Source: Curvularia clavata (Eukaryota). Taken from it: DNA of 64,000 nucleotides. The position numbers and the translations under genes were made by a program. The stretch covers positions 1,240,001-1,304,000 of the forward strand of contig CP089277.1 in the NCBI GenBank assembly GCA_023920165.1, written 5' to 3'. Below are positions 12,330 through 58,594 of the stretch, piece by piece (within the stretch, counting starts at the first letter, position 1; the number at the start of each line of letters is the position of its first letter). The notes beneath the pieces are model-generated. The model was not told the origin of the DNA and searched no databases. It worked only from the letters and a program-made list of their open reading frames with translations.

Positions 12330-15154
12330 ATGCCTGGAATCTTGCCTATGAAAGTCATCAAAGTCGGCTCAAGCTGCCAGAGCCGCATCGCCCAAGCCTG
12401 CGATCGTTGTCGCTCCAAGAAGATACGATGCGACGGTATCCGCCCCAGCTGCACCCAGTGCACAAATGTCGGGTTCGAGTGCAAGACGAGCGATAAGCTC
12501 AGCCGCCGCGCTTTCCCCAGAGGATACACCGAGTCGCTGGAAGAGCGTGTTCGCGCTTTAGAAGGCGAAGTCCGCGAACTTAAGGAATTACTCGACGAAA
12601 AGGACGAGAAGATCGATATGCTGTCGCGTATCCACTCGCATTCCCCAGCATCGCAGGCTTCTGCAAAACGGCCATCACCACATTCTCCTGCCTCTCCTGA
12701 GGGCCGTGACGAGTCACAAGAAAAAGACGATACGTTCAAAGTGCAACAGACGCCACATCTTCTCGACGACTCAAACCATGACTCCTATTTCGTAGGCAAC
12801 TCAGCCGGGCGAACACTTGTTGGTATGGTACTCTGCTCCCTCTTGTGGCAGTCTTTTACATCTAACGCTTCGCAGAGGCTTTTAAGCAAAAGGCACAAGA
12901 AGCAGGCAGACTCTCAACCGATGTTGACTCAGGTGTCTTCTTCGGCGCAGCTGCAAAGACAGCCCCAACACAATCTAGACGGACGGTGTTTTTCAAGGCT
13001 CCTCCTCGCCTGGTCTCGGACCAAATGATCAACATCTTCTTCCAGGAGTGGGCACCTTTGTTCCCAATCCTCCACCGCCCAACCTTCCTATCTTTATACG
13101 AGCAGTATGTTGCTAGCCCAGACACTATGACCGACAAAAAGTCGATCGCACAGCTTAACCTCGTGTTCGGAATCGCTGCACTTTCCAGTGACGTACGTAT
13201 CTCCTGTCGCATGCTCGGTCACAAGCTGACATTTCACAGCCTCGTGATGGCCAGGATGTTGATTCATTCGAAGCCCAGTGGCAGAGCGCAGTTGACAACT
13301 TCTTGATGGACAACGATGTGGCAACCCTTCAGTGTCTGGTTCTAGCTCAAATCTTCTGCCTCCTGAGAGCCGATTACTCTCGGCTGCTCAAATACAAGGG
13401 CTTGGCTGTAGGCCTTTCACAACGCCTTGGCTTACATCAGTCCCAGAAGCGCTTCGCACTCGACGCACTGACGTGTGAAACACGCAAGAAGACGTTTTGG
13501 TCGCTCTACACCGTTGACTGGTAGGTATTGTGTAACCGAGTATCCACATCATAGTGCTGATCCCCCTATAGTCTTTCCGCTGCACACATTGGTCTTCCGA
13601 CGCTGATCCGCGAGGAGGATGTGCACTGCGAGTATCCGGTCGACGCCGATGACGAATACGTCACAGAGAAGGGCTTCCTGCCGACCTTGCCCGGCGAGTA
13701 CACCAAGCTCTCCAGTGCACTAGCGCTCTTCCGCCTGTCACGCATTCTGTCCAAGGTACTTACGGATCTGTATCCGGGATCTACATCACATGACATTTCC
13801 TTCCGCACTATCGCGACGCTGGCGGATGAGCTAGAGGATTGGCAGACCAACCTTGCACCACACCTCAAGCTCACGTTTACCCAAGACAAGCCAAGTACCA
13901 ACGTTACTAGTAGTCGTTCACCTATTTTGGTAAGTACAGTTCATATGGCACTGCATGTTTAAGTACTTACATTACCAGTCTCTTGCCTACCACCACATCA
14001 GAACACTGTTGTACCGCCCAGCAGTTATTGCGAACCTTGGAGACAAGGCTTCTTCAGCTGTGGTAGCTGTTGGCGATGCCTGCAAACACATTGTGCAAAT
14101 CGTGGAGCTCCTCGACGAACGCAAACTCAGCTTCTCCCTCTGTCTCAACCGCAATGAGGTCCTTGTGCAAGCTGGCTTCGGCCTGCTCTTCCAGACGCTC
14201 AGTCTTGCGCGGGAAGGCAAGCTCATGAAGGACAGCAATCGCCTTGTTTGCTCCGTCATGGATATGCTTGAGCGCGGAAACGCTGCTGGCTACACAGAGT
14301 TTCGCCGCATAGGTTGTGGCATCGTGGCTGTACCACGCGTAGAGCAGATGCCAGCGCCATCTCTTTCGCGGCACAACTCAGATCACAACATGGGTGCACC
14401 TCTGGATGCTTTCCGTGCGACACAAAAGTCACTCAAAACACTGGCAGCACGCTTCTCCCCTGGGGCCTTGAAGGCTACTCGTGCAAACGCCCAGGAGCCA
14501 CGCCGTGCAACGCTTCCTGCCCTTACGCCCCACGTAGGTTCTCACCCCAATCACTCGTCGACAAGTTTGTCATCAATACGGTCGGAACCCCCGACCGCTC
14601 GCTCAGAGCCAACCTTGAGCCCGTTGTCCCACCGTGCATCCTTCTCGGTGCCAAACAAGCGCCGCCCAAGCCAGCCTCCCAGTCAACAGCAACAACGCAA
14701 CATTGACTACATGTCGTTTCCCATTGATCCACTGGCTAGTTATACGCTTGCAAACAACCAAGCTATCAAATCTGAAGTGTCACCATCGGACTGGGAGCGT
14801 CTTCTCTCGTCACTAGACAACGGCCAAACAAACATCTACGATACCATCTATGGTGGCCCACCTGCCGATGCTCTGCTCGACGTTACGCCCTTGTCCGCCA
14901 CTACAGAAAGTAACGCGACATGGTCGCCAAACGTCTGGAACTGGAGCAGCTATGCCTCAGAAGCCCCACCACCCCAAAGCGTCCTCAGCTTCAGCGACGA
15001 GAGCTTGACCAGCGGAGAAGAATTCAACAACCCTGCTTGCGACTACGGATCCACGCCTGGCAGCGATAGATTATACCCGGGCATTATGATCCCTGGTGAT
15101 TACGAGGATGCTGCAAATCTCATTGGGCTCGATGGCACATACTGTGGATTGTAG
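12330..15154 (+). CDS. facB: Zn2Cys6 transcription factor FacB/Acu-15 (Cat8-like acetate-utilisation regulator), multi-exon
   Basis: N-terminus [13 protein letters not shown]...[26 protein letters not shown]...[25 protein letters not shown] is characteristic of FacB; fungal TF middle region [12 protein letters not shown]. Confidence 0.88.
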
Positions 15155-25883: not shown

Positions 25884-28360
25884 ATGACGAACCAAATGGA
25901 TGAGCCCACAGAGCAGCCGGGCGCGCGCAACACGTGGGCAATGAATGGCCAAATCGTCAACAGCCCAGAATCTGATCCACCAAAGAAATCCCAGGACCAG
26001 CCGTTGAACCGCGCTTGTGAGGCTTGTCGCATTTCCAAAGTTCGATGTCTCGTGAACCCAGACACCAGCTCGTCCCAGTGTCAGCGATGTGCCAAGGCCA
26101 ACCGGGCTTGCGTCTTTGCGCCGCCAGCAAAAAGGCGACAAAGGAAAAGGACAGATGTGCGTGTTACCGAATTGGAGAAGGAGATACAGCAGATGCGCAG
26201 CCTTTTACAGGCAAAAGCTCGCTCGTCCAATGATGTGAGCGAACACGAGTCAGGAGACGATGAATTCGAGGAGCACGAGAATACAAGAGAAAAAGCGACT
26301 CCGTCTACTTCACAAAGACATTCGAGTATAGGGACAGCAACAGGGTCGTCAACAAGGCCTGGTAGCTTTGCCACGCCCGCTAGCAAAGCATCAGTGCCAG
26401 AACCCCCGATCGCCAGCGCACCCAAAGAATTTCTTGGGTCGTCTGAGAACGACATTATAGATCGCGGCGTCATTACGGAAGAAATGGCTCGTGAACTCTT
26501 GACCATCTGGCGCAAAGAGCTAGTCGCTGCATGTCCTGGCATTACAGTCCCAAAACACTGGGATGTGTTCGATCTCCGAGCAAATAAACCTGCGCTCTTC
26601 CATGCCATCATGGCCGCTGCTGCGCATTCCAAAGGCTCAGCATTGTCAGACAGGCTACACGAAGAAACAGTGCTTCTTTACGCTCGTTCTGCTTTCGTCA
26701 AGGGCGAAAAATCAGTCCAGGCTATCCAGGCGCTCATAGTTACTGTGTCGTACTACTCGCCGTCAAAGACCCCGGGACAGCTTCAGATATATCAGTGGAT
26801 CAATATGGCTGCCTCAATGGCACTAGAACTGGGCTTGACATCGAAGCCGAGAACACATGAACAACTACCAAAACGTGCCATTCGGTCTCTGCAGAAGATA
26901 TCTTCACCAGAAGAGCTACTGGAACACTGTCGTACTATCTTGTTATTGTACATCATCAGTGCCGGCCTTTCAATGAGATTAAAGCGGCCGAACATTTTGC
27001 TCTTTAATAGCTGGATGGAGGAATGCTCTGGGATTCTTGAAAAGTCAAACTTGTTGGATGACAAGAGAATAGTTGCGTCGCTAAAGCTGCAGAGGATTGC
27101 TGACGAGGCAAACACAGCATTTGGTTTTGACGACGCAAGTACCAGTTTCAGTCTCTCGGAGCTGCGGATGCAGATTATCTTGCGAATCTTTGACCGGAGG
27201 ATGAGAGATTGGAGAAAGTCTGTTCCTGATGATGTGATGACGTGTAGGTTGAATACTGATGTTTCTGAGAGGCATGTTTGACTAAGAGTTACAGTGAATC
27301 GTGAACTGGAGTATTACTCAAACATGCTCGCCATGTGGGAGTTTGGCATGGACGGAGGTCGCTTTGACGGTAAGCCACAATTGCACCGGCTCCAAGAAAA
27401 CACGAGTACTGAGACATGAACCCAGTCATCGATTTTAGAAACAGGCATGTCACGCTTCCAGCCTTGGACGACGACTGCATACAACCCGAATCTCTCCTCT
27501 CTCGCTCAGCCTTACAAATCAACGCGACAACAAAATGCATAGCAATCGCACAGACTATCCTAGATCTCTTCATCGCAGTTCCCGACGACGAGCTACGCAA
27601 ATCACCCAACGTCCTCTACGTCCGAGCCGTCTACTCACTCGTCACCCTCATGAAAGCCGACTACGCCGTAGGCACAGACGCAGAAATGGGCGAATTGCTG
27701 GAAAGCCAAAACCTACGAGTAGGATACTACCTCGACGCCGTACTCCAAAAGACCAGCGACGCAGCCGGCCCGCAGAAATGCCGAAACCCTAGCCACTGGA
27801 ACGTTCTACTCGAGACAAAGCTGAAAAGCTGGTGGGACGAATATCAAGACTGGCGGAAGGAAGAGCGGCATTTGAAGAGACGGAAAACGAAGCCCAGCCA
27901 CGAAGGTAGGGAACCCGTGGCAGGAACAAGTAACCAGACGTCGACTTTTGCACACGCCAACCTCGAAGCTTTAGCCCCGTCTGAAATCAATACTTCGTCA
28001 TCGCACATTACACCAGATCGACAGCCGCAACCTCAACCCCAAGTATCAGACCTCCCCGTCCCAGACTTCAACATGGTAACTCCCTACCCAACAGCTCCCG
28101 CCGCAACCGCCCCATGGGCCCCCACCGAAATGGACCTCGACGCCTCCGCTTCTGCTCAGGCCATTGGCTCTAGCGGTAACGGTGCCGACGATCAAACCAC
28201 CTCCTTCGCGACCGATATGGGCGACTTCTCTGCTGCGTTTCAAAACGGCGATTTGTACTTATGGAATGACCTCACAGCTGAGAACTTTGGGGGCTGGGTA
28301 ACACAGGCGGGTGGGTATGGGGGCATGGAGTTTGGGGATATGAATGTGCAGCGGTTTTAG
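25884..28360 (+). CDS. Zn2Cys6 transcription factor (3 exons)
   Basis: RACEACRISKVRC...QCQRCAKANRACVF cluster followed by a coiled coil and fungal TF region; introns near 27244-27294 and 27370-27425; start codon uncertain (25857, 25884 or 25896). Confidence 0.85.
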
Positions 28361-37411: not shown

Positions 37412-39519
37412 ATGGTAATGCAAGTTTCCAATATGCTTGCTGAGCCTCGGATTGCTGGCGCACAACGCTTCCCTGAGGTGGAGGACCTCATAGCGGGCCG
37501 ACACCACGAAGCCATGCAGTCGGCCACTGGCTACGACATGATGCCTCAGAGAGACGACTCTAGCATTATGGACGTGTATCCGAGCACCGAAACGGGCTCG
37601 GCGCACGGCTCCTTGTCGCCCTCGAAGCAGATGCCCAAGAAGCACGTCAGCTTCGAATTGCTGCTCCCCCAGTCTCCAGCCCACAAGGCTCGACTACCAA
37701 TGCGGGTAGATATATACCCTCACGATACAACAGACTCGATCATCACAACAGTTAAGAACTTCTACGGTCTGTATGAGCGTCGCGGTGTCATATTCGAGGA
37801 CCGCCATGGCAATACACTCATCGCGCGGTTCGAGAACTTCGAACATGGCATGACCGTCTACGTCCGAGTCTCTCCAGAGAGTCTGGACGCAGATGAATAT
37901 TCTCCTGATCCGCGACAAGCCACCGTCTCGCCCCGTCGTCGTCCCCACCTCGAAGAAGCCTTCCAGATGCTCCCACCTCACCAGCACAACCAAGCAGGCG
38001 CAAGAGCGGGGTCTCGTCATGCACGCCAGAGCCGTTCCCCACACCCGGGCCGCGGTCGCAGAAGCGCTTCAATCAGCAAGCGCATGCGCCCTTCTACAAA
38101 GAGTCGCGGAAACAGCTCCCATGGAAGCTTCGCTGAAGCCAATGGCGATGACTACACCGACAGCGAGGGCGAACATGGCTCAGTAACCAGCTCACGTCGC
38201 TCGAGAAAAGAGCCACTGGCAAGTGCTGAGATCAGTGTCGATAATATTGTCGAAGGTGGGCGCCGGAAGCGTGCGAAGTTTGACAGCTCGGTAAGTACCT
38301 TGGGTGGGGGGGCATGTATCGTGCAATAGTCTGACACCCATTCCTTCCACAGGAGCTGCCATTGTTCGTCCCGCCTCAAGTACCAATGACTGCTTCTCTG
38401 TCATCTGCATCTCCACAGCGACGTATTAGCGGTAATACTGCTGGCTCACCATACTCGGTCAACCAGCAGACATTCTCATACTCACATCCGCTGCCATCGC
38501 CGCAGAGCTACAATCAAGGTGACAGTTCCTACATGCAAGGATTGGTCACGCCTTACTCTGGGTCAAGTGGTCCAACCCCGGGCCATAAGTCTCGCGCCCG
38601 AGGTTCAGGGCAATATTCTCACTATCGCTACTCCGGTAGCAGTGGAATGCTCCCTACCCCTGATACCACTCTTGCGAGTATCAGTGTCATCTCTGATGAA
38701 GATGTGGCCCGCCAGCTGATGCGTTTGGGTGACGCATCCAACTTCTCCACTCATGGTCGCACCTCGACGTCGACGCTCGACGATGCCTTTAGCGGAAAGG
38801 CCGACGCAGCATCCTCGAGCGACGAGAGTGCTGATGGTAGTGAGGATGAGGCGGAGCTACCCACTCTCCCATATAACATATCTCGTGGAATTCACGACAT
38901 GGCTCGTGTGTACGATGATGGCGAGAGCAGCGGTGAGGACTATGAAGACGATCGTGACGGTTCCTTCAAGGGCGTCAGCGATGAGATGATGGCCGACGAG
39001 CACAACCATCAGCGTGCACAGTCGGGTGTCATCAAAGCTCGATCCATTTCGAGCAAGTCTGGAAAACCCAGCAAGGCCCGGGCTATGTCCAAGAGCAAGA
39101 GCAAAACCAATGGCACCAGCAAAGCCGCGCCAATGTCGCCATCATCGCTTCCGTCTCAGTCACGCAAAGCTTCGAATGCATCAATCAATTTCCAGCATCA
39201 GCTCGCTGTTGATGAGGAGGATCTTTCCAGCAAGCCACGTTGTCAACGCTGCCGCAAGAGCAAGAAGGGCTGTGATCGCCAACGCCCTTGCCAGCGCTGC
39301 AAAGACGCTGGCATTGGTGCCGACGGGTGTGTCAGTGAAGACGAAGGTAACGGCAGGAAGGGCCGTTACGGACGTCACATGGGTGTCTCAGTCAAGAAGA
39401 GCTCCGTCCCGTCTGCGACATCAATGGCGCCTCCTCCAGCATATGACTACAACATGGCTGTAGATGGTGCTCACACCATAAGCACATCATTGGACAAGAG
39501 CAAGAAGCGAAAGAGATAA
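37412..39519 (+). CDS. Protein with C-terminal Zn2Cys6 cluster (intron 38291-38352; probable 5'UTR intron near 37029-37255)
   Basis: Two long ORFs joined in frame; KPRCQRCRKSKKGCDRQRPCQRCKDAGIGADGC near the C-terminus; basic NLS-like tail. Confidence 0.85.
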
Positions 39520-49389: not shown

Positions 49390-50394
49390 TTAGTATTCCC
49401 TCCTCGGTAGATGCGCTCTCCAGATTGGGTCACCTTCCCACTTAACCTGACCTAGTTTCCGGTCCACCTCCAACATAATCTCGCAAAACGGAATCCTCCT
49501 CTTGATACTCAATGTTGTTTGACATTTGTTGCATCCAATGCTAACTCGCTTTGAGAAGCGACTTTCCATCATAGTCTCTTCACGACCACCTAATATAAGT
49601 TCAATAGTTGCTGTATCAGATGTGTTGATATGTGGACAGATCTTGAGATTTATACTCTCCAACGCTTCGTGTGTATCTTGAATCGTGACTCGTTCAGTCC
49701 AGGGTGCGGAGAGCAGCAGGAATGTGGCTCGAAGGGTGACGATCGAGGTTCCAGGGACAAGGGACAGCGTGGGAGGAAGCGGACCCCGGCCTGGACCGTA
49801 CGTCGCATACGCGTTGTCGAAGCATTCCATGCAATGGAAGAAATGCCCATGCTTGTTTTTCTGGCCTTTTTTCTTGTACCTTCTCAGCATGCTGGCAAGC
49901 TCCTGGAAAGTGAATTCGTAGTGTCGACACACGTAGAATGGGCCATCAGTCGTTCGGAAGCATTTGCGCAGGTGTCGTTGCTGAGTCGCTGTTTCGACTG
50001 GGAATCTAGAAGCATTGTGCTGGCGAGAGCACGCCACACAATACATTTGGCCGAGGCCACGTCTTATCCAGGAAAAAAGACAATGGTCTTGACCGTAGAA
50101 GTGGTCTCTGTTCAACCTACAGATGACTTCTTGGGTGAGTACTCGCTGGTGGCCTATGGGGCGAATGGAAAGGATGGCATCGGCGTATTTGTGGCTCGAC
50201 AATGTGAAGCAAAAACGGTCCACATAGTTCAAGAACGTTCCGATGTATTGGACGAGCTCGTACGGCAAAGCGTACAGTGGGCTGTTATGTAAGTTCAGGT
50301 TGTAGTTTTTAGATGCGCGTCGAGCTGCGCTAGACGATGGTATCAGTCTAGAAATTAAACTGTTGTAAACGGTGCCACGCCGGTAGGTGGTCAT
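49390..50394 (-). CDS. Hypothetical F-box-like, Cys/His-rich protein
   Basis: Intronless 334-aa ORF; LYALPYELVQYIGTFL F-box-like segment; CVAC, CMEC, CPH and CNKC motifs. Confidence 0.65.
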   Translation of the reverse strand: MTTYRRGTVYNSLISRLIPSSSAARRASKNYNLNLHNSPLYALPYELVQYIGTFLNYVDRFCFTLSSHKYADAILSIRPIGHQRVLTQEVICRLNRDHFYGQDHCLFSWIRRGLGQMYCVACSRQHNASRFPVETATQQRHLRKCFRTTDGPFYVCRHYEFTFQELASMLRRYKKKGQKNKHGHFFHCMECFDNAYATYGPGRGPLPPTLSLVPGTSIVTLRATFLLLSAPWTERVTIQDTHEALESINLKICPHINTSDTATIELILGGREETMMESRFSKRVSIGCNKCQTTLSIKRRIPFCEIMLEVDRKLGQVKWEGDPIWRAHLPRREY

Positions 50395-51319
50395 GATGGG
50401 TTTTTGACATGAGGGAAGAGGAAGACTCTAAGCCCGCCACTACATTGGCTGGTGCGAACTGTTCATAAAGCATTGGTGGCATCTCCGCCTGTAGTTTGGA
50501 ATGGCTCGTTAAGGGTACATTGTTTCCATGGCTATGAGGTAGTCCAGCAGCCAGTCAGTTAAGTGTGTCGTAATTGCCAAATTCATAGGCGTTTTTAGTG
50601 GTCGAAGAACATGATAATTGAGCAACTCGTTACTTGAAAAAGGCGAACCATGAATAGACAATGGACTTGTCCTGCATTGCTAAGATGGTAATAAATTCAT
50701 ATTGATCGTTGTGGTGGTGTTAAATGTTAGTCACCTTGCGTACTACTGACCTCCATCTGCGCTTCCGACTACCGCAAGATCACAACAAGTCAGCGCAATC
50801 GTATTCCAGCTGCCTGTTATACAAGAAAGTGGACCAAGCAATACGTTGAATACAAGTAAAGCAGAAATCAACGGCTGCCCAAGCAATTTCTTTTCCAAGA
50901 GTTCTAGACTGGCATTCCTCCGACCTTGGGTTCGGGAACTCCTGAATAAGGAAGCCGGTGCCCCTCGCTTCCTCTCCTGGCATGTCGGGGTTCGGGGGAA
51001 AGCCCAACAACCCCACCATAACCCCAGTTACCCCTCACACTCTTGTATGTACGGCCCCGCTTGAAGCTCCTGGAGCCTGACCAAGAGGGATATCGGAGAC
51101 ACAGCGGGCGGGCGCTTGTCTGTTTGGCCCTCGGCACACGTCAAATGACAGGAAAGACTTGGAATTTGGACGGGCGCTATGACGAGATGTCGTCGGATCG
51201 GATGATGAAGGTTGGGGTTGAATTCCTAAATAGAATTTGGCTCCCTCTCACAAGATAATCAACTATCCTTTCTTTTCTTCATTTACGTGTTGCATCGAGT
51301 TGCCTCCAGACAAGTAAAC

Positions 51320-54696: not shown

Positions 54697-57600
54697 ATGT
54701 CGACTCCCTCAAGCATCTCGCCAGAGACTGGTGCTATGCAGCACGCACCTTCTCCTGCTGCTGGCGCTGATGATGGCGTCATGGACGAAATCCCGCGCCG
54801 ACAAATGCGAGGTAAACAAACTCAGCCTGACGTCACGCTCTGATCTGACATAGCTGTCTCTCTAGTCAAGGTCTTGTACACATTTGATGACCAGAACAAA
54901 TCAAACTGTCTTGCTCGTCTGCCAAACGTCCTGGATGTACCTGTCGTTTCGCTGGACGAGACTACCGAGGTGGGAGTCATCGAACTCAAGACGTGCATTC
55001 AGGCTATTGTCACTGCAAGGTAGGATACAGGCACCGCTCATTGATCAGATAGAACGTATCGCTGACTGCTACAGCCCCGAGCTCGTAGCCAAACTAGGCC
55101 ACGATTACACCGTGTACGCCTATGACTTTTCTGAGTACGAAACACCGCTTGTCGGACAGGGCATGCTGTCATGGCTTCTTGCGTCTGCGTCATCAACACC
55201 CAATGCCCCCGCCAAGGATTCCCAAACCATGGTCACTGGTCGCGTGTGCAAAAATATCCTCGGCATTTTTTCCAACGGTGTCAAGGAGACACTAGAAGTC
55301 AAGTTGAAATTGGTGCCTGTTCCGACGTGCATGCAGAAAGAATATGTGGAGAATATGGAGCGATATCACAGCCTCAGCCAGCTGATGCCTGAGGGGTTTG
55401 ATTACAATGCCTGGTCCGACTTCCTGAAAGAGAACCCTATGCTTGGTCACCTGGCTCAGCCGACTAAAAGCCACTCCGCCCAGCCTTCGCCACGTCATTC
55501 TGTTGGTGGCGTTGAACCTTTCCATCAAATGCTTACCCGCCAAAGCCCATCCCAGGAGCCGCTTCGTAACGAATCTTTTTACGACCAACCGAATACCCCC
55601 TTCATGTCCCAACCGACTAGACCTTCCAGCCCTGCCATGAGTACAATCTCATTCCATCACTACCAGTACAACCTTCCTTCACGCCCGACGTCACGAGCTT
55701 CTGTCCGTAGCGAAGTCGCCCCACCCACTCAACAACATCAGTTCAGCGATCCGTATGTTGTGGAGCCACAAGATGACGGTCCCCCAAAGAAGAGGGCTCG
55801 GATAACACAGACTACGAGGCCAAGGAACACGCCTTTGACTGCTCATAACGATTCACTTAGGGTTACTGCTAGCACCGCAGCGTCAGTCCGTCTTCTCAAG
55901 CCAGCCCTCAGTGCTTCAGGAGCTGCCACAGAGATGGTCCCACGCGCACCCACTCCACGTCCAGGCGATAAAATAGGCCATCGAGGATATCGTCGTCTGC
56001 CAGCGCCAAGCGCTCTAAGACACGCATCAATGGACGGAGGCAGGCCATACATGTCCCCTTACGAGCCTAGCACCTTTTCGGATAATGCGATGGAATCTGC
56101 AGATGAAAGAGAAGCAAGTCCCAGCGAGACTCCCAAAGACATGCCCTCGTCGCCCCCGATTGCACCCCGCCGCACTATATCCCCGGCTCCTTCTAGTCCG
56201 AACCTACCAACGCTACCTCTTAATGATTCAGGCTTTGTTAGCGACATACCGACGAGCAGGGATGCGGATGGGATGAACTGCGGGGACAGCTCATGGCCAG
56301 GCCATGGAGCAATGCAATATCGCCGGGGATCAGCCATACAGCCAATCACTGAAAGCATCGAAATGAACATGGGCGGCACACAGCCATTCGACTTTGATGC
56401 CATGGACCCGGACGTTCTCAACTGCGTATATTTCCAAGGACAAAACACGAATCAACCAGATCTTCTTTCAAAAATGGCAATTAATGAGCAGGATAACAAT
56501 TCTGTCAGTGGACGACCTACCACTGGTGATACATTCACATCTGGATCTATGGGGAAGGCTCAGTCTCGGGAAAAGTCACGCGCAACAGTCTCTACTGCTG
56601 GTTCACCTGATGGCATAGTAGCGCAAATATCCCCACCTGCTGAAAGCGAAGCGCAAGTGTACAGCCGTTCCGCCACTCCAAACCTACCAGCGAAACAACC
56701 TAAACAACCCAAATCTCGAGGGCTTCCGAGGTCGCAAACCTGGTCTGGAGCTTGTGAACCTATGTCTGACGCCCCGACGCCCTCAGAATGTGGCTACACC
56801 CGAAGCGGCTCCGGTGCTAAGAGGAAGCGCTACATCAAAGATCGACTGGACGCTGCTATCAGAAAAGGCGAAATGCCACCACACTGTGTGAACTGCGGAG
56901 AAATTGATACACCTACGTGGAGAAAAGCTTACACACGAGTGGAAACTGGCTCTCCGAGCGGTATCGAGCTGTCTACAGACTCCGGTAGCACCGACATCAT
57001 TGCTTACGAAGTAATTGAGCCTACTCCTGAGACTGACGGTGAGCCAAAATACCGCATCTTCAAGAACAACTTGACTCGTAAAGACAAGGATATGATGGCA
57101 GCAAAGGCACATGATGCTTTCCAAGAACTCAATCTGTGCAACCCATGTGGACTATGGCTCATCAAGAAATTTTCCATGCGGCCGCAGAAAGTGTGGGACA
57201 GGTCAGCACGACTAGCAAAGCGAAAGAGGGAACAGAAAATAGGAGCACGTTCCAAATCTACTATGGGTGATGAGCTTATGTCGGACGCTATCTTGCCAGA
57301 AACGGAATCCGGCATGCCAGCTGAGCAAGAGCTAGGCGCAACATACGATGGAGTGATGGCACCACCAAAAGTTCCATCTGGTACACATGAAATGGATGAA
57401 GGTAACGCACAAGCTGCCTTCAGACGAGCTATCCAGTCCAGTCCTGCTGGTGTGAGAGGAAGTAAGGTTTTGCCCATCAACCTTGAGCACGATCTTACAC
57501 CAAAACCTACACGGCGAATATTATTCCCTTCGCCTCGGAAGCAAAGTCAGCGCAAGAGCCTGGGCCAACAAGCGCCTCCTGTTGCTACTCCCATGCACGT

Positions 57601-58594
57601 TCATGACGATGATGCGCCGAAGAAACCCCGTTGCCAGCGGTGTAAAGAACTCAAGCGGGCTTGCGACCGAGAACGGCCGTGTGGTCGATGCGAGAACGCT
57701 GGAATAGGTTACGACGGTTGTATCCCCTGCGAGACAAAGAAAACGAACTGGTTTGAGCGGCCTGTAGTACAAGCAGCGGTGGTTGAGCAAGAGAATCCTG
57801 ACAAAGAAAACTGTCCGCCACCACCTGCAATGGAAACTGACGAGCTCGCCCACCTTTTCGAGGAATCCCGGTCTCCAAACAAAACGCCAAAACAAGATCG
57901 GATATCTGAAGATCTCCTAAAGACCCCCACACCCGGTACTCGACAGCGCATCGCCCTGACGCCGAGACGAGGTGTTGATAACGGCGAGGTTCCTACGACC
58001 CCCTCACGGAGCAATCGTGCCGCAACTGCTGCTCCAGACACTCCGTTTACGCGCCAGCTTAATGCTCTTTTGTCTGACCATCCTATCTCATCACCGTCTC
58101 AAAGTTTCGACTTTTCCAATTTTCCCATCTTCACTCCTCCTGGCCATAGCAGTGTACAGTTCAGCGAACTTCTACCTGACGACTTTCTTTCCAGCGACAT
58201 GCCTATGAGTAGTTCACCATCAAAAACGGGGTCCTTAGGCGTAGGCTTTGATCTTTACGAGGACCCGAATACATCTACTGCTGGGATGTGGAATGGAGAG
58301 AACATCTTTGACAATGAAGCCATGTTGATGACCATGGAGAACGGTTCCAAACGCTCTAGTGCGGACCTCAATAGTGGCTCCGACGCAGCTGCGCTGCTGA
58401 AGATGAACGTGGGTGGCATAACTGTTGACTTTGCAGCGATGATCGAAGAAGTCGTTGGTGCTGCCAACAAAGACACTGACGCACACGAGGACGAAGGCGA
58501 GTCGATGGTGAACGGCGTTGAATCTGCGCACAAAAGCATGGAAGTGGAGAGCGAGGGTGCCGGTAGTACACCTGAAGAGCCCACTTCTGTTTAG
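54697..58594 (+). CDS. ams2: Ams2/Spt21-like GATA-type transcription factor (introns 54812-54865 and 55020-55074) with an extra Zn2Cys6-like cluster
   Basis: VKVLYTFD...CLAR...SPELV...DYTVYAYDFSEYETPLVGQGMLSW N-terminal domain; CVNCGEIDTPTWRK...LCNPCGLWL GATA-like finger. Confidence 0.8.

Follow-up and report, generated by a model that had tools for sequence, protein, structure and literature searches.

The Ams2-like gene in a stretch of Curvularia clavata DNA encodes, besides a GATA-like finger, a zinc-cluster module of the Zn2Cys6 type. The stretch, hereafter "the window", comprises 64,000 nucleotides (nt) of assembly GCA_023920165.1 (contig CP089277.1, positions 1,240,001 to 1,304,000 of the forward strand), and all coordinates refer to it. 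The module lies within a coding exon and closely resembles one in a "C6 finger domain protein" gene upstream, here called C6up. Ams2-type factors control the supply of histones and influence how chromosomes segregate. Taking all observations together, we consider it reasonably probable that the module is an exonic insert of C6up type gained once in the Pleosporineae stem, that the linked gene is the likeliest donor, that the module serves as a monomeric DNA reader, and that a separate gain took place in the Didymosphaeriaceae. The features on which this reading rests are as follows.

54697..58594, + strand: Ams2-like gene, coding sequence (CDS) taken from spliced transcript contigs; exons 54697-54811, 54866-55019 and 55075-58594 (stop included); product of 1262 amino acids (aa)
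57632..57721, + strand: Zn2Cys6 core of the Ams2-like protein, C-x2-C-x6-C-x5-C-x2-C-x9-C (from the cysteine pattern, a PF00172 match of 21.8 bits and the predicted fold)
57596..57775, + strand: insert carrying the cluster, approximate limits, about 50-60 residues (from block-to-block distances in carriers versus non-carriers)
37433..39519, + strand: C6up gene; exons 37433-38290 and 38353-39519, intron gtaagt..cacag
39205..39399, + strand: zinc-cluster module of C6up, core 39241-39330, flanks DEEDLSSKPRC ... GCVSEDEGNGRKGRYGRH (cluster in 120/120 listed family members; flanks invariant or nearly so)

A preliminary description of the window had reported a gapless identity of 23/33 residues between the two clusters, and we reproduce this figure on the exact translations of the window DNA: positions 57623-57721 (+) of the Ams2-like gene read KPRCQRCKELKRACDRERPCGRCENAGIGYDGC and positions 39232-39330 (+) of the upstream gene read KPRCQRCRKSKKGCDRQRPCQRCKDAGIGADGC. 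As also reported there, all six cysteines and the unusual 9-residue last loop are preserved; the spacing is 2-6-5-2-9. BLASTP widens the match to 44 ungapped positions, 25 of them identical and 35 positive (60.5 bits, pairwise E 2e-16). The DNA of the two 33-residue stretches is identical at 63/99 bases; over 46 codons the nonsynonymous divergence (dN) is 0.38 and the synonymous divergence (dS) is saturated and not computable, so that the synonymous sites were correctly described as heavily diverged. Two further clusters with a Zn2Cys6 pattern are present in the window, at 12399-12482 (+) and 26016-26111 (+); both are of the ordinary type, unlike the Ams2-like/C6up pair. Against a 62-residue piece of the Ams2-like protein they reach just 21.9 bits (12/26, one gap) and 18.1 bits, respectively, in BLAST, and the likeness within the pair therefore goes beyond a generic Zn2Cys6 resemblance.

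The cluster lies within one open frame of 1242 codons, and its exonic status, for which RNA data had been proposed as the check, is confirmed by transcript contigs of two studies on one organism, from runs X1 (4342 nt) and X5 (4393 nt), which differ from the window at 11 bases (about 99.7% identity). Both of these full-length contigs splice out the GT..AG introns 54812-54865 and 55020-55074 and continue uninterrupted from 55075 to past 58800, cluster included; being spliced, they derive from mRNA, and the cluster segment thus belongs to the mature message. Metatranscriptome runs X12 and X20 contributed short contigs only, none extending as far as the cluster. The joined CDS measures 3789 nt with a single terminal stop. 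The acceptor of intron 1 (54812-54865) lies 12 nt downstream of that in the deposited model, and the transcript-based product is four residues (AVSL) shorter, 1262 aa versus 1266 aa.

Distribution and conservation of the insert

A search with residues 640-1000 of the Ams2-like protein returned 261 relatives, and the orthologue counts given below concern the best 120 of these. The named ones among them all come from Pleosporales or allied Dothideomycetes, and the C. clavata protein P0003 is 100% identical across the queried residues. In the window protein the insert sits between two conserved blocks, ILFPSPR (57518-57538) and DKENC (57800-57814), and the distance between these blocks separates the orthologues into three groups:

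80 of the best 120 orthologues: cluster at the window's site; ILFPSPR-DKENC distance 91-171 aa (69 measured)
10 of the best 120: cluster only after the C-terminal DFAAMIEE block, middle site empty; ILFPSPR-DKENC distance 44-49 aa
30 of the best 120: no cluster; ILFPSPR-DKENC distance 32-56 aa (24 measurable)

In 69/80 of the middle-site carriers the cluster lies between both blocks; in the other 11 a block was not matched by the pattern and the position of the cluster agrees. When 29 representatives are aligned, every row that lacks the insert has a clean gap of some 50 residues, the flanking conserved sequence being intact on both sides.

The middle-site carriers include, by name, Curvularia, Bipolaris, Pyrenophora, Alternaria, Plenodomus, Cucurbitaria, Parastagonospora, Ampelomyces, Didymella, Ascochyta, Dothidotthia and others, all of them of Pleosporineae type (Pleosporaceae, Phaeosphaeriaceae, Didymellaceae, Leptosphaeriaceae, Cucurbitariaceae and allied families). 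The named carriers at the C-terminal site are Karstenula and Paraphaeosphaeria (Didymosphaeriaceae, Massarineae). Non-carriers are found in Massarineae and other Pleosporales: Amniculicola, Zopfia, Massarina, Byssothecium, Lentithecium, Lophiotrema, Lindgomyces, Westerdykella, Periconia, Kalmusia, Didymosphaeria and others. Eight taxon names were checked against taxonomy, which places C. clavata in the Pleosporaceae of the Pleosporineae; the remaining names we take to belong to the families usually assigned to them. The preliminary description had presented the protein as a GATA plus Zn2Cys6 hybrid regulator; this architecture is no oddity of Curvularia and spans the orthologues of Pleosporineae type.

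The ten orthologues with a C-terminal cluster (P0079-P0081, P0086, P0088 and P0090-P0094) are Didymosphaeriaceae-like, and this group was absent from the preliminary description. The gene models of Didymosphaeria variabile and Kalmusia end before the site of the C-terminal cluster. When the C-terminal tails of the Didymosphaeriaceae proteins were compared with C6up by BLAST (composition correction off), the alignments covered 90-200 residues but ran through low complexity, and we assign them no weight beyond the cluster itself.

Proteins labelled "lgn" (from Logan assemblies) look like plain calls of open reading frames (ORFs): P0005 corresponds exactly to the exon-3 ORF and is 94 residues shorter than P0003. 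The insert is missing from some of these ORF-only predictions too (P0106 and P0118 are examples), and a missing insert is therefore no artefact of intron calling; by the same token, a C-terminal cluster present in ORF-only entries shares one open frame with the Ams2 body. The most economical reading of these sequences would be one insertion in a Pleosporineae-type stem and a separate addition in the Didymosphaeriaceae.

The six-cysteine pattern is kept by 80/80 middle-site clusters and the exact spacing 2-6-5-2-9 by 73/80, the last loop measuring 4-6 residues in three of the orthologues. Over the 30 cluster residues the identity to the window protein averages 0.76, compared with 0.81 in the block that contains the start of the GATA-like finger and 0.13-0.45 in the variable regions of the protein. 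Between the window and the metagenome locus L004, dN for the module is 0.058 and dS is saturated. These values and the invariant cysteines bear out the earlier proposal that the module is old and under purifying selection.

Fold and relatives of the module

Zn2Cys6 domains usually follow the pattern C-x2-C-x6-C-x5-12-C-x2-C-x6-8-C. The Ams2 module agrees with it except in the last loop, which at nine residues is one longer than the usual range. On a 77-aa piece of the Ams2-like protein, PF00172 (Zn_clus) scores 21.8 bits against a cut-off of 21, and the same family is precomputed for 5 of the 120 listed orthologues. AlphaFold2, run with a 40-sequence alignment, predicts a two-helix zinc-cluster fold with helices starting at both C-x2-C pairs and a predicted local distance difference test score (pLDDT) of 76-89 in the core. 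Each of the 25 Foldseek rows shown represents a Zn2Cys6 DNA-binding domain (Hap1, Pho7, Cep3, Ppr1, Put3, Gal4, Leu3, AlcR), and in a profile search of solved structures Pho7 comes first (E 2.2e-4), followed by Cep3 (E 4.5e-4). Profile score, predicted fold and structural neighbours together make the Zn2Cys6-type module real, as had been proposed. The 62-aa model contains no helix past residue 44 and is coil from residue 47, so that the cluster is not followed by the linker and coiled-coil dimerisation element typical of Zn2Cys6 proteins; the conserved blocks of the host protein restart about 25 residues after the last cysteine. The residue aligned with Lys18 of Gal4 is K (53), H (21) or R (6) in the 80 middle-site clusters, and in 40 aligned modules a basic KPR ahead of the first cysteine is nearly invariant. 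From sequence and predicted fold we infer that the module would bind zinc and DNA.

Given the similarity to C6up, the module was searched with phmmer, using the 62-residue piece, in a library of 1,835,955,588 representative proteins (E <= 0.001), and only 182 matches were returned. The best 150 of these were classified by BLAST with the cluster masked: 4 are Ams2-like, 120 belong to the C6up family (many of them fragments of the exon-2 ORF) and 26 are other or unclassified proteins. Among the 26 are the two-cluster singletons P0244 and P0250; the small Pleosporales proteins P0383 (Trematosphaeria, 498 aa) and P0290 (Didymosphaeria, 417 aa); P0365 (Lecanosticta), with an N-terminal cluster; and proteins containing C2H2 or PHD domains. 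The share of the C6up family points to an insert of a narrow subtype of which C6up is the sole widespread and ancient carrier, and the relation to the gene 18 kb upstream, first noted as a near-copy, is upheld in that the nearest library relatives are overwhelmingly of the C6up family.

The subtype reads KPRC-x2-C-x6-CDRxRPC-x-RC-x2-AG-x5-C and is matched by the Ams2 insert. Across the 40 aligned modules, from Ams2-like proteins, C6up and other carriers, C16, C19, C26, R28, P31, C32, C35 and C45 are invariant and P14, R15, R18, D27, R30, R34 and G39 nearly so. Mean core identity is 18.9/30 between middle-site clusters and C6up, 20.6/30 between C-terminal-site clusters and C6up, and 18.9/30 between the two sites; the two Ams2 groups are thus no closer to one another than each is to C6up. 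The least-changed Ams2 clusters, in P0057 (Dothidotthia) and P0058, are 25/30 identical to C6up.

P0244, the best non-Ams2 match, was considered as representative of a widespread donor family and rejected, as it is an orphan with 5 matches, all through the cluster. P0244, P0250, P0346, P0370 and P0337 carry the same module subtype in unrelated contexts (two copies, C2H2, PHD, N-terminal); the module may be prone to copying, or some of these five may be chimeric gene calls.

The C6up family itself is ancient and highly conserved. We found 164 relatives at E <= 0.001, and the best 120 of these come from Dothideomycetes, Eurotiomycetes, Lecanoromycetes, Leotiomycetes and Sordariomycetes. In 120/120 of these listed members from five classes, proteins of about 700 aa, the cluster lies near the C-terminus and is almost invariant, and some 15 residues on each side of it are conserved as well. 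The window's C6up, the start of which may lie a few codons further upstream, is 84-88% identical to the Alternaria alternata protein P0479. Examples from other genera are Pyricularia oryzae XP_003715244 and Botrytis BCIN_08g06020. A literature search by orthologue locus names found no described function for any family member. Some annotators name family members after S. pombe SPBC56F2.05c, a protein termed uncharacterised in a section of PMC9434175.

Five genes separate C6up from the Ams2-like gene: a transglutaminase-like gene, an Edc3-like gene (FDF plus YjeF_N), a DUF1749 hydrolase, a family-less ORF and a dihydroxyacetone kinase (Dak). The family-less ORF, at 49390-50427 (-), has no Pfam match, and its earlier label "F-box" was dropped for that reason. 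With the DUF1749 protein as probe we obtained 24 metagenome loci. Two of these, L004 and L005, identical in sequence, contain C6up and the transglutaminase-like, Edc3-like, DUF1749, Dak and Ams2 genes in the order and orientation of the window, with both clusters present and about 15.6 kb apart; a match to the family-less ORF was not found in them. Locus L001 covers the Ams2 side of the block, and the C6up side is found in L002, L013, L015 and L022. The available flanks of L013 and L022 contain no Ams2-like gene, which marks the limit of reach and is no evidence that the gene is absent. The DUF1749 gene is inverted relative to C6up in L013 and L022.

A further sign of linkage comes from contig sizes: in 5/6 species that appear in both protein lists, the longest contig is of equal size for the two proteins. 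Sizes agree in Phaeosphaeriaceae sp. PMI808 (345,526 bp), Ampelomyces, Didymella exigua (826,789 bp), Amniculicola (893,730 bp) and Massarina; the exception is Byssothecium. The presence of the insert-free Amniculicola and Massarina among the five suggests that the linkage is older than the insertion.

The remaining features of the two genes are as follows.

37643..37870, + strand: ubiquitin-like (beta-grasp) domain of C6up, mapped by eye from residues 129-209 of the orthologue P0123
38225..38275, + strand: CHZ-like motif in C6up, ..ISVDNIVEGGRRKRAKF.. (PF09649, E 9.6e-4, 19 bits, below the cut-off of 23.3)
55049..55321, + strand: Ams2/SPT21 N-terminal domain of the Ams2-like protein, matched part, profile positions 53-136 of 136 (PF25823.1, E 1.7e-31, 109.3 bits, cut-off 27)
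56885..57148, + strand: GATA-like finger of the Ams2-like protein, C-x2-C-x80-C-x2-C (PF00320 partial match; both halves conserved)

The layout of C6up comprises the ubiquitin-like domain, the CHZ-like motif, long disordered stretches, the zinc cluster close to the C-terminal end and KSKKRKR as the last residues. Its ubiquitin-like domain is predicted with a pLDDT of 76-97, and the best Foldseek rows for it are nearly all ubiquitin-like, SUMO-like or FERM-F1 (E 2e-3 to 1e-2). PF09649, the CHZ family of histone chaperones, is matched by 18/30 family members at E <= 0.01, below its threshold, and the columns of the motif are invariant.

In the host protein, the PF25823 (Ams2-SPT21_N) match agrees with the original assignment of the ORF as Ams2-like; the earlier part of this domain falls in exons 1-2, and precomputed Pfam data mark PF25823 in most of the 120 listed orthologues. 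A search of ESM Atlas with the N-terminal domain gave no usable match. PF00320 covers only positions 1-15 of 36 in its profile, at 22 bits and under the cut-off of 26.8. An ordinary GATA-finger loop has 17-20 residues. The finger halves CxNCGxIxTPxWRK and LCNPCGLW are kept in 29/29 aligned Pleosporales orthologues and so is the 80-residue loop between them, which is therefore a fixed feature and no unspliced intron.

Origin and role of the module

Given these observations, we propose that an in-frame insert of about 50 residues arose once, in the Pleosporineae-type stem of the Pleosporales, and would have been held by purifying selection since. Its source would be the module type carried by C6up, the "C6 finger" protein found across Pezizomycotina. 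The linked C6up gene, about 15-18 kb upstream on the same strand and in a conserved block, may have donated a short-range copy of some 150 bp into the Ams2 exon; a source of C6up type, together with this position of C6up, makes the linked gene the likeliest donor. We infer that local capture from it is plausible and, on balance, the probable course of events, and we offer short-range template switching as a suggestion for the mechanism. A similar module would have been added separately at the C-terminus of the Ams2-like protein in Didymosphaeriaceae-like fungi. Within the protein, the module may provide a second head for reading DNA, one that works independently, some 160 residues past the GATA-like finger towards the C-terminus; on the model of Pho7, binding would be monomeric and involve no coiled coil, and the module could change or narrow the set of promoters that the Ams2-like protein reads.

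Several points weigh against this reading. A tree of 123 modules over 40 columns is a polytomy (77/120 inner branches fall under the drawing threshold, and long branches attract) in which a sister grouping of Ams2 and C6up clusters is neither supported nor rejected. The Ams2 clusters have CxxCK and GCIP, as do the non-C6up carriers P0244, P0290, P0331 and P0324, where C6up has CxxCR and GCVS, so that an intermediate paralogue could be the donor. The source tally covers the best 150 of 182 matches. Whole-block microsynteny was seen in close relatives only (L004/L005, 74% identical), the more distant L022 has no Ams2-like gene within 10 kb beyond DUF1749, and an equal longest-contig size is an indirect sign of linkage; there is also an ascertainment bias, as the pair was noticed because both genes share one window. 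The polarity, gain and not loss, rests on the distribution inside Pleosporales, the orthologues compared being all from that order. As for the fold, the Zn_clus match is marginal (21.8 against 21 bits) and goes unreported on the whole 1242-aa ORF at E <= 0.1, and the Foldseek E-values are weak (none below 0.1), as a domain of 30 residues would lead one to expect.

The failure of the 40-column tree to separate donors and the CxxCK and GCIP signatures would also fit a module that came from the same family with no local capture, from another paralogue, rare or since lost, or by a mechanism indifferent to distance, the 18-kb linkage then being a coincidence. Other carriers do exist in Pleosporales and relatives (P0383, P0290, P0365 and P0244, the last with two clusters), and since synonymous sites are saturated, no DNA trace of the copying event is left. 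We nevertheless regard a non-local source as unlikely, if a serious contender. The non-C6up carriers stand alone or form tiny clusters, P0244 belongs to no family, and C6up accounts for 120 of the best 150 matches. The chance of finding such a gene within about 18 kb is of the order of 0.1%, assuming a genome of a few tens of Mb; the linkage of C6up and Ams2 appears to be older than the insert; and a second insertion of the same module into Ams2 in another suborder would be easier with a source nearby. As regards the preliminary description, its interpretation is supported in part: an old, exonic module under purifying selection and of C6up-type family origin stands, whereas the linked copy is no more than a plausible donor, given the polytomy and the few other carriers of the module, and a DNA site or partner shared by the two proteins is conjectural.

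A bolder extension of local capture is that the C6up module was copied at least twice into Ams2 over short range, at the middle site in Pleosporineae and at the C-terminus in Didymosphaeriaceae, each time from a gene that had stayed 15-18 kb upstream all along, and was kept to direct the protein to the DNA sites or the chromatin partner of C6up. We rate this as rather doubtful; if true, C6up, with its ubiquitin-like domain and CHZ motif, and Ams2 would form a linked pair with joint targets in the regulation of histones or centromeres.

It is more improbable again that the module has been kept as a zinc-stabilised knob for protein binding or regulation (a docking site shared with a partner of C6up, or a stability element), and is thus no DNA reader and does not make the protein a dual-specificity factor. 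The marginal Pfam score and the unusually long 9-residue last loop would suit such a role, as would the lack of a coiled coil or linker after the cluster, where the model is coil from residue 47; the near-invariant 60-residue module of C6up, with its acidic and Gly/Arg flanks, would fit a protein interface too, and the ubiquitin-like domain and CHZ-like motif of C6up are traits of protein-binding factors. However, all structural neighbours found are DNA-binding Zn2Cys6 domains, the base-contacting position that corresponds to Gal4 Lys18 is basic in 80/80 and KPR precedes the first cysteine in nearly all; coiled-coil-free monomeric Zn2Cys6 readers are also known, namely Pho7 and AlcR (PMC6265462). 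An annotation artefact, in which the cluster segment would be an unrecognised intron or part of a fused gene model, is refuted for this window and has a negligible chance, as no support for it was found (the sole discrepancy, the 12 nt at the acceptor of intron 1, is far from the cluster) and the segment is retained in spliced contigs of two studies, lies in the single 1242-codon frame and is conserved in 80 orthologues, ORF-only predictions among them.

On the preferred reading, then, many plant-associated and pathogenic Dothideomycetes (Alternaria, Bipolaris/Curvularia, Pyrenophora, Parastagonospora, Didymella) have a version of Ams2 with an extra conserved module, predicted to read DNA. The insert represents a clean and datable in-exon insertion of a predicted DNA-binding domain with a candidate donor close by and perhaps with an independent second insertion. 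It illustrates clearly, if on a modest scale, how a regulator may gain another putative DNA-binding part, and the second insertion site is the most interesting addition. It also draws attention to C6up, a highly conserved Pezizomycotina-wide family for which we found no described function.

Comparison with known systems

The Ams2 of S. pombe and SsAms2 (SS1G_03252) of Sclerotinia sclerotiorum have, like the Curvularia protein, an Ams2/SPT21 N-terminal domain; they also have a GATA-type finger, to which the GATA-like finger of the Curvularia protein would correspond, and SsAms2, with 1201 aa, is close in length to the 1262 aa of the Curvularia protein. The finger is present in Ams2 and missing from Spt21. 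From its domains, the Curvularia protein is probably an Ams2 orthologue and histone-gene regulator. In S. pombe, Ams2 activates the core histone genes in S phase; it needs its GATA finger to bind their promoters and self-associates through its N-terminal region (PMC5128866). Silencing of SsAms2 by RNAi lowers histone and cell-cycle transcripts, and the Sclerotinia factor also affects growth and infection structures (PMC6291475). In the sections of these two papers devoted to the proteins, the GATA domain alone is described and a zinc cluster is not mentioned (PMC5128866; PMC6291475). Unlike the Ams2 and SsAms2 described there, the Curvularia protein has the extra Zn2Cys6 module and an 80-residue loop in its GATA-like finger. 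That Zn2Cys6 clusters are not known from Ams2/Spt21 proteins, as the preliminary description put it, agrees with a literature search in which no paper reporting a zinc cluster in an Ams2-like protein turned up; nonetheless UniRef names many of the carriers "Zn(2)-C6 fungal-type domain-containing protein", so that the domain is already in databases.

Both C6up and the Ams2 insert have the same module subtype, including the KPRC lead-in, at 23/33 to 25/30 identity. In C6up the module stands near the C-terminus of a protein of about 700 aa with a ubiquitin-like domain and a CHZ-like motif, whereas in Ams2 it is a mid-protein insert.

The closest solved sequence is Pho7 of S. pombe (PDB 6e33, 6o19); 6e33 superposes with a root-mean-square deviation of 1.5 A over 40 columns at 38% identity. 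Pho7 and the Ams2 module share C-x6-CD..RPC-x-RC, with five residues between the third and fourth cysteines, and the lack of a coiled coil after the cluster. The last loop of Pho7 is the shorter one (a 3-residue gap in the profile alignment), and Pho7 is a stand-alone activator of the phosphate response, whereas the Ams2 module sits as an insert within a different factor. Pho7 is monomeric on DNA, and peptides flanking its cluster on both sides contact the DNA; both it and AlcR are monomeric Zn2Cys6 readers without a coiled coil, and at the position of Gal4 Lys18 Pho7 has Asn where the Ams2 module has K, H or R (PMC6265462).

Cep3, subunit B of CBF3 in budding yeast, has the CDRxxPC spacing of the module and matches it with E 4.5e-4 by profile and 0.15 by single sequence; this similarity is weak and confined to the cluster. 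Cep3 reads centromere DNA, and its cluster is N-terminal in a large dimeric protein. A centromere link for the Ams2 module is speculation.

Proteins with two unrelated types of DNA-binding domain, as predicted for the Curvularia protein, were surveyed as dual-specificity factors by Shelest (2017), who lists "GATA+Zn cluster" factors in 5/191 fungal genomes, at most one per genome, along with others such as the Cmr1-type C2H2+Zn2Cys6 (PMC5415576). By column count in supplementary Table 4 of that survey, the positives are Clafu, Dotse and three basidiomycetes, and the Pleosporales genomes Cocca, Coche, Lepma, Pyrte, Settu, Stano and Dotsy score 0 (PMC5415576). Clafu and Dotse, "GATA+Zn cluster" by the same count, are Cladosporium fulvum and Dothistroma septosporum, Dothideomycetes outside Pleosporales (PMC5415576). 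The 2017 census probably missed the Ams2-like family because both of its domains score near or below family thresholds. The combination of two DNA-binding domain types in one factor is therefore already known, and the zinc-cluster variant of Ams2 is, as far as our literature search shows, newly described here.

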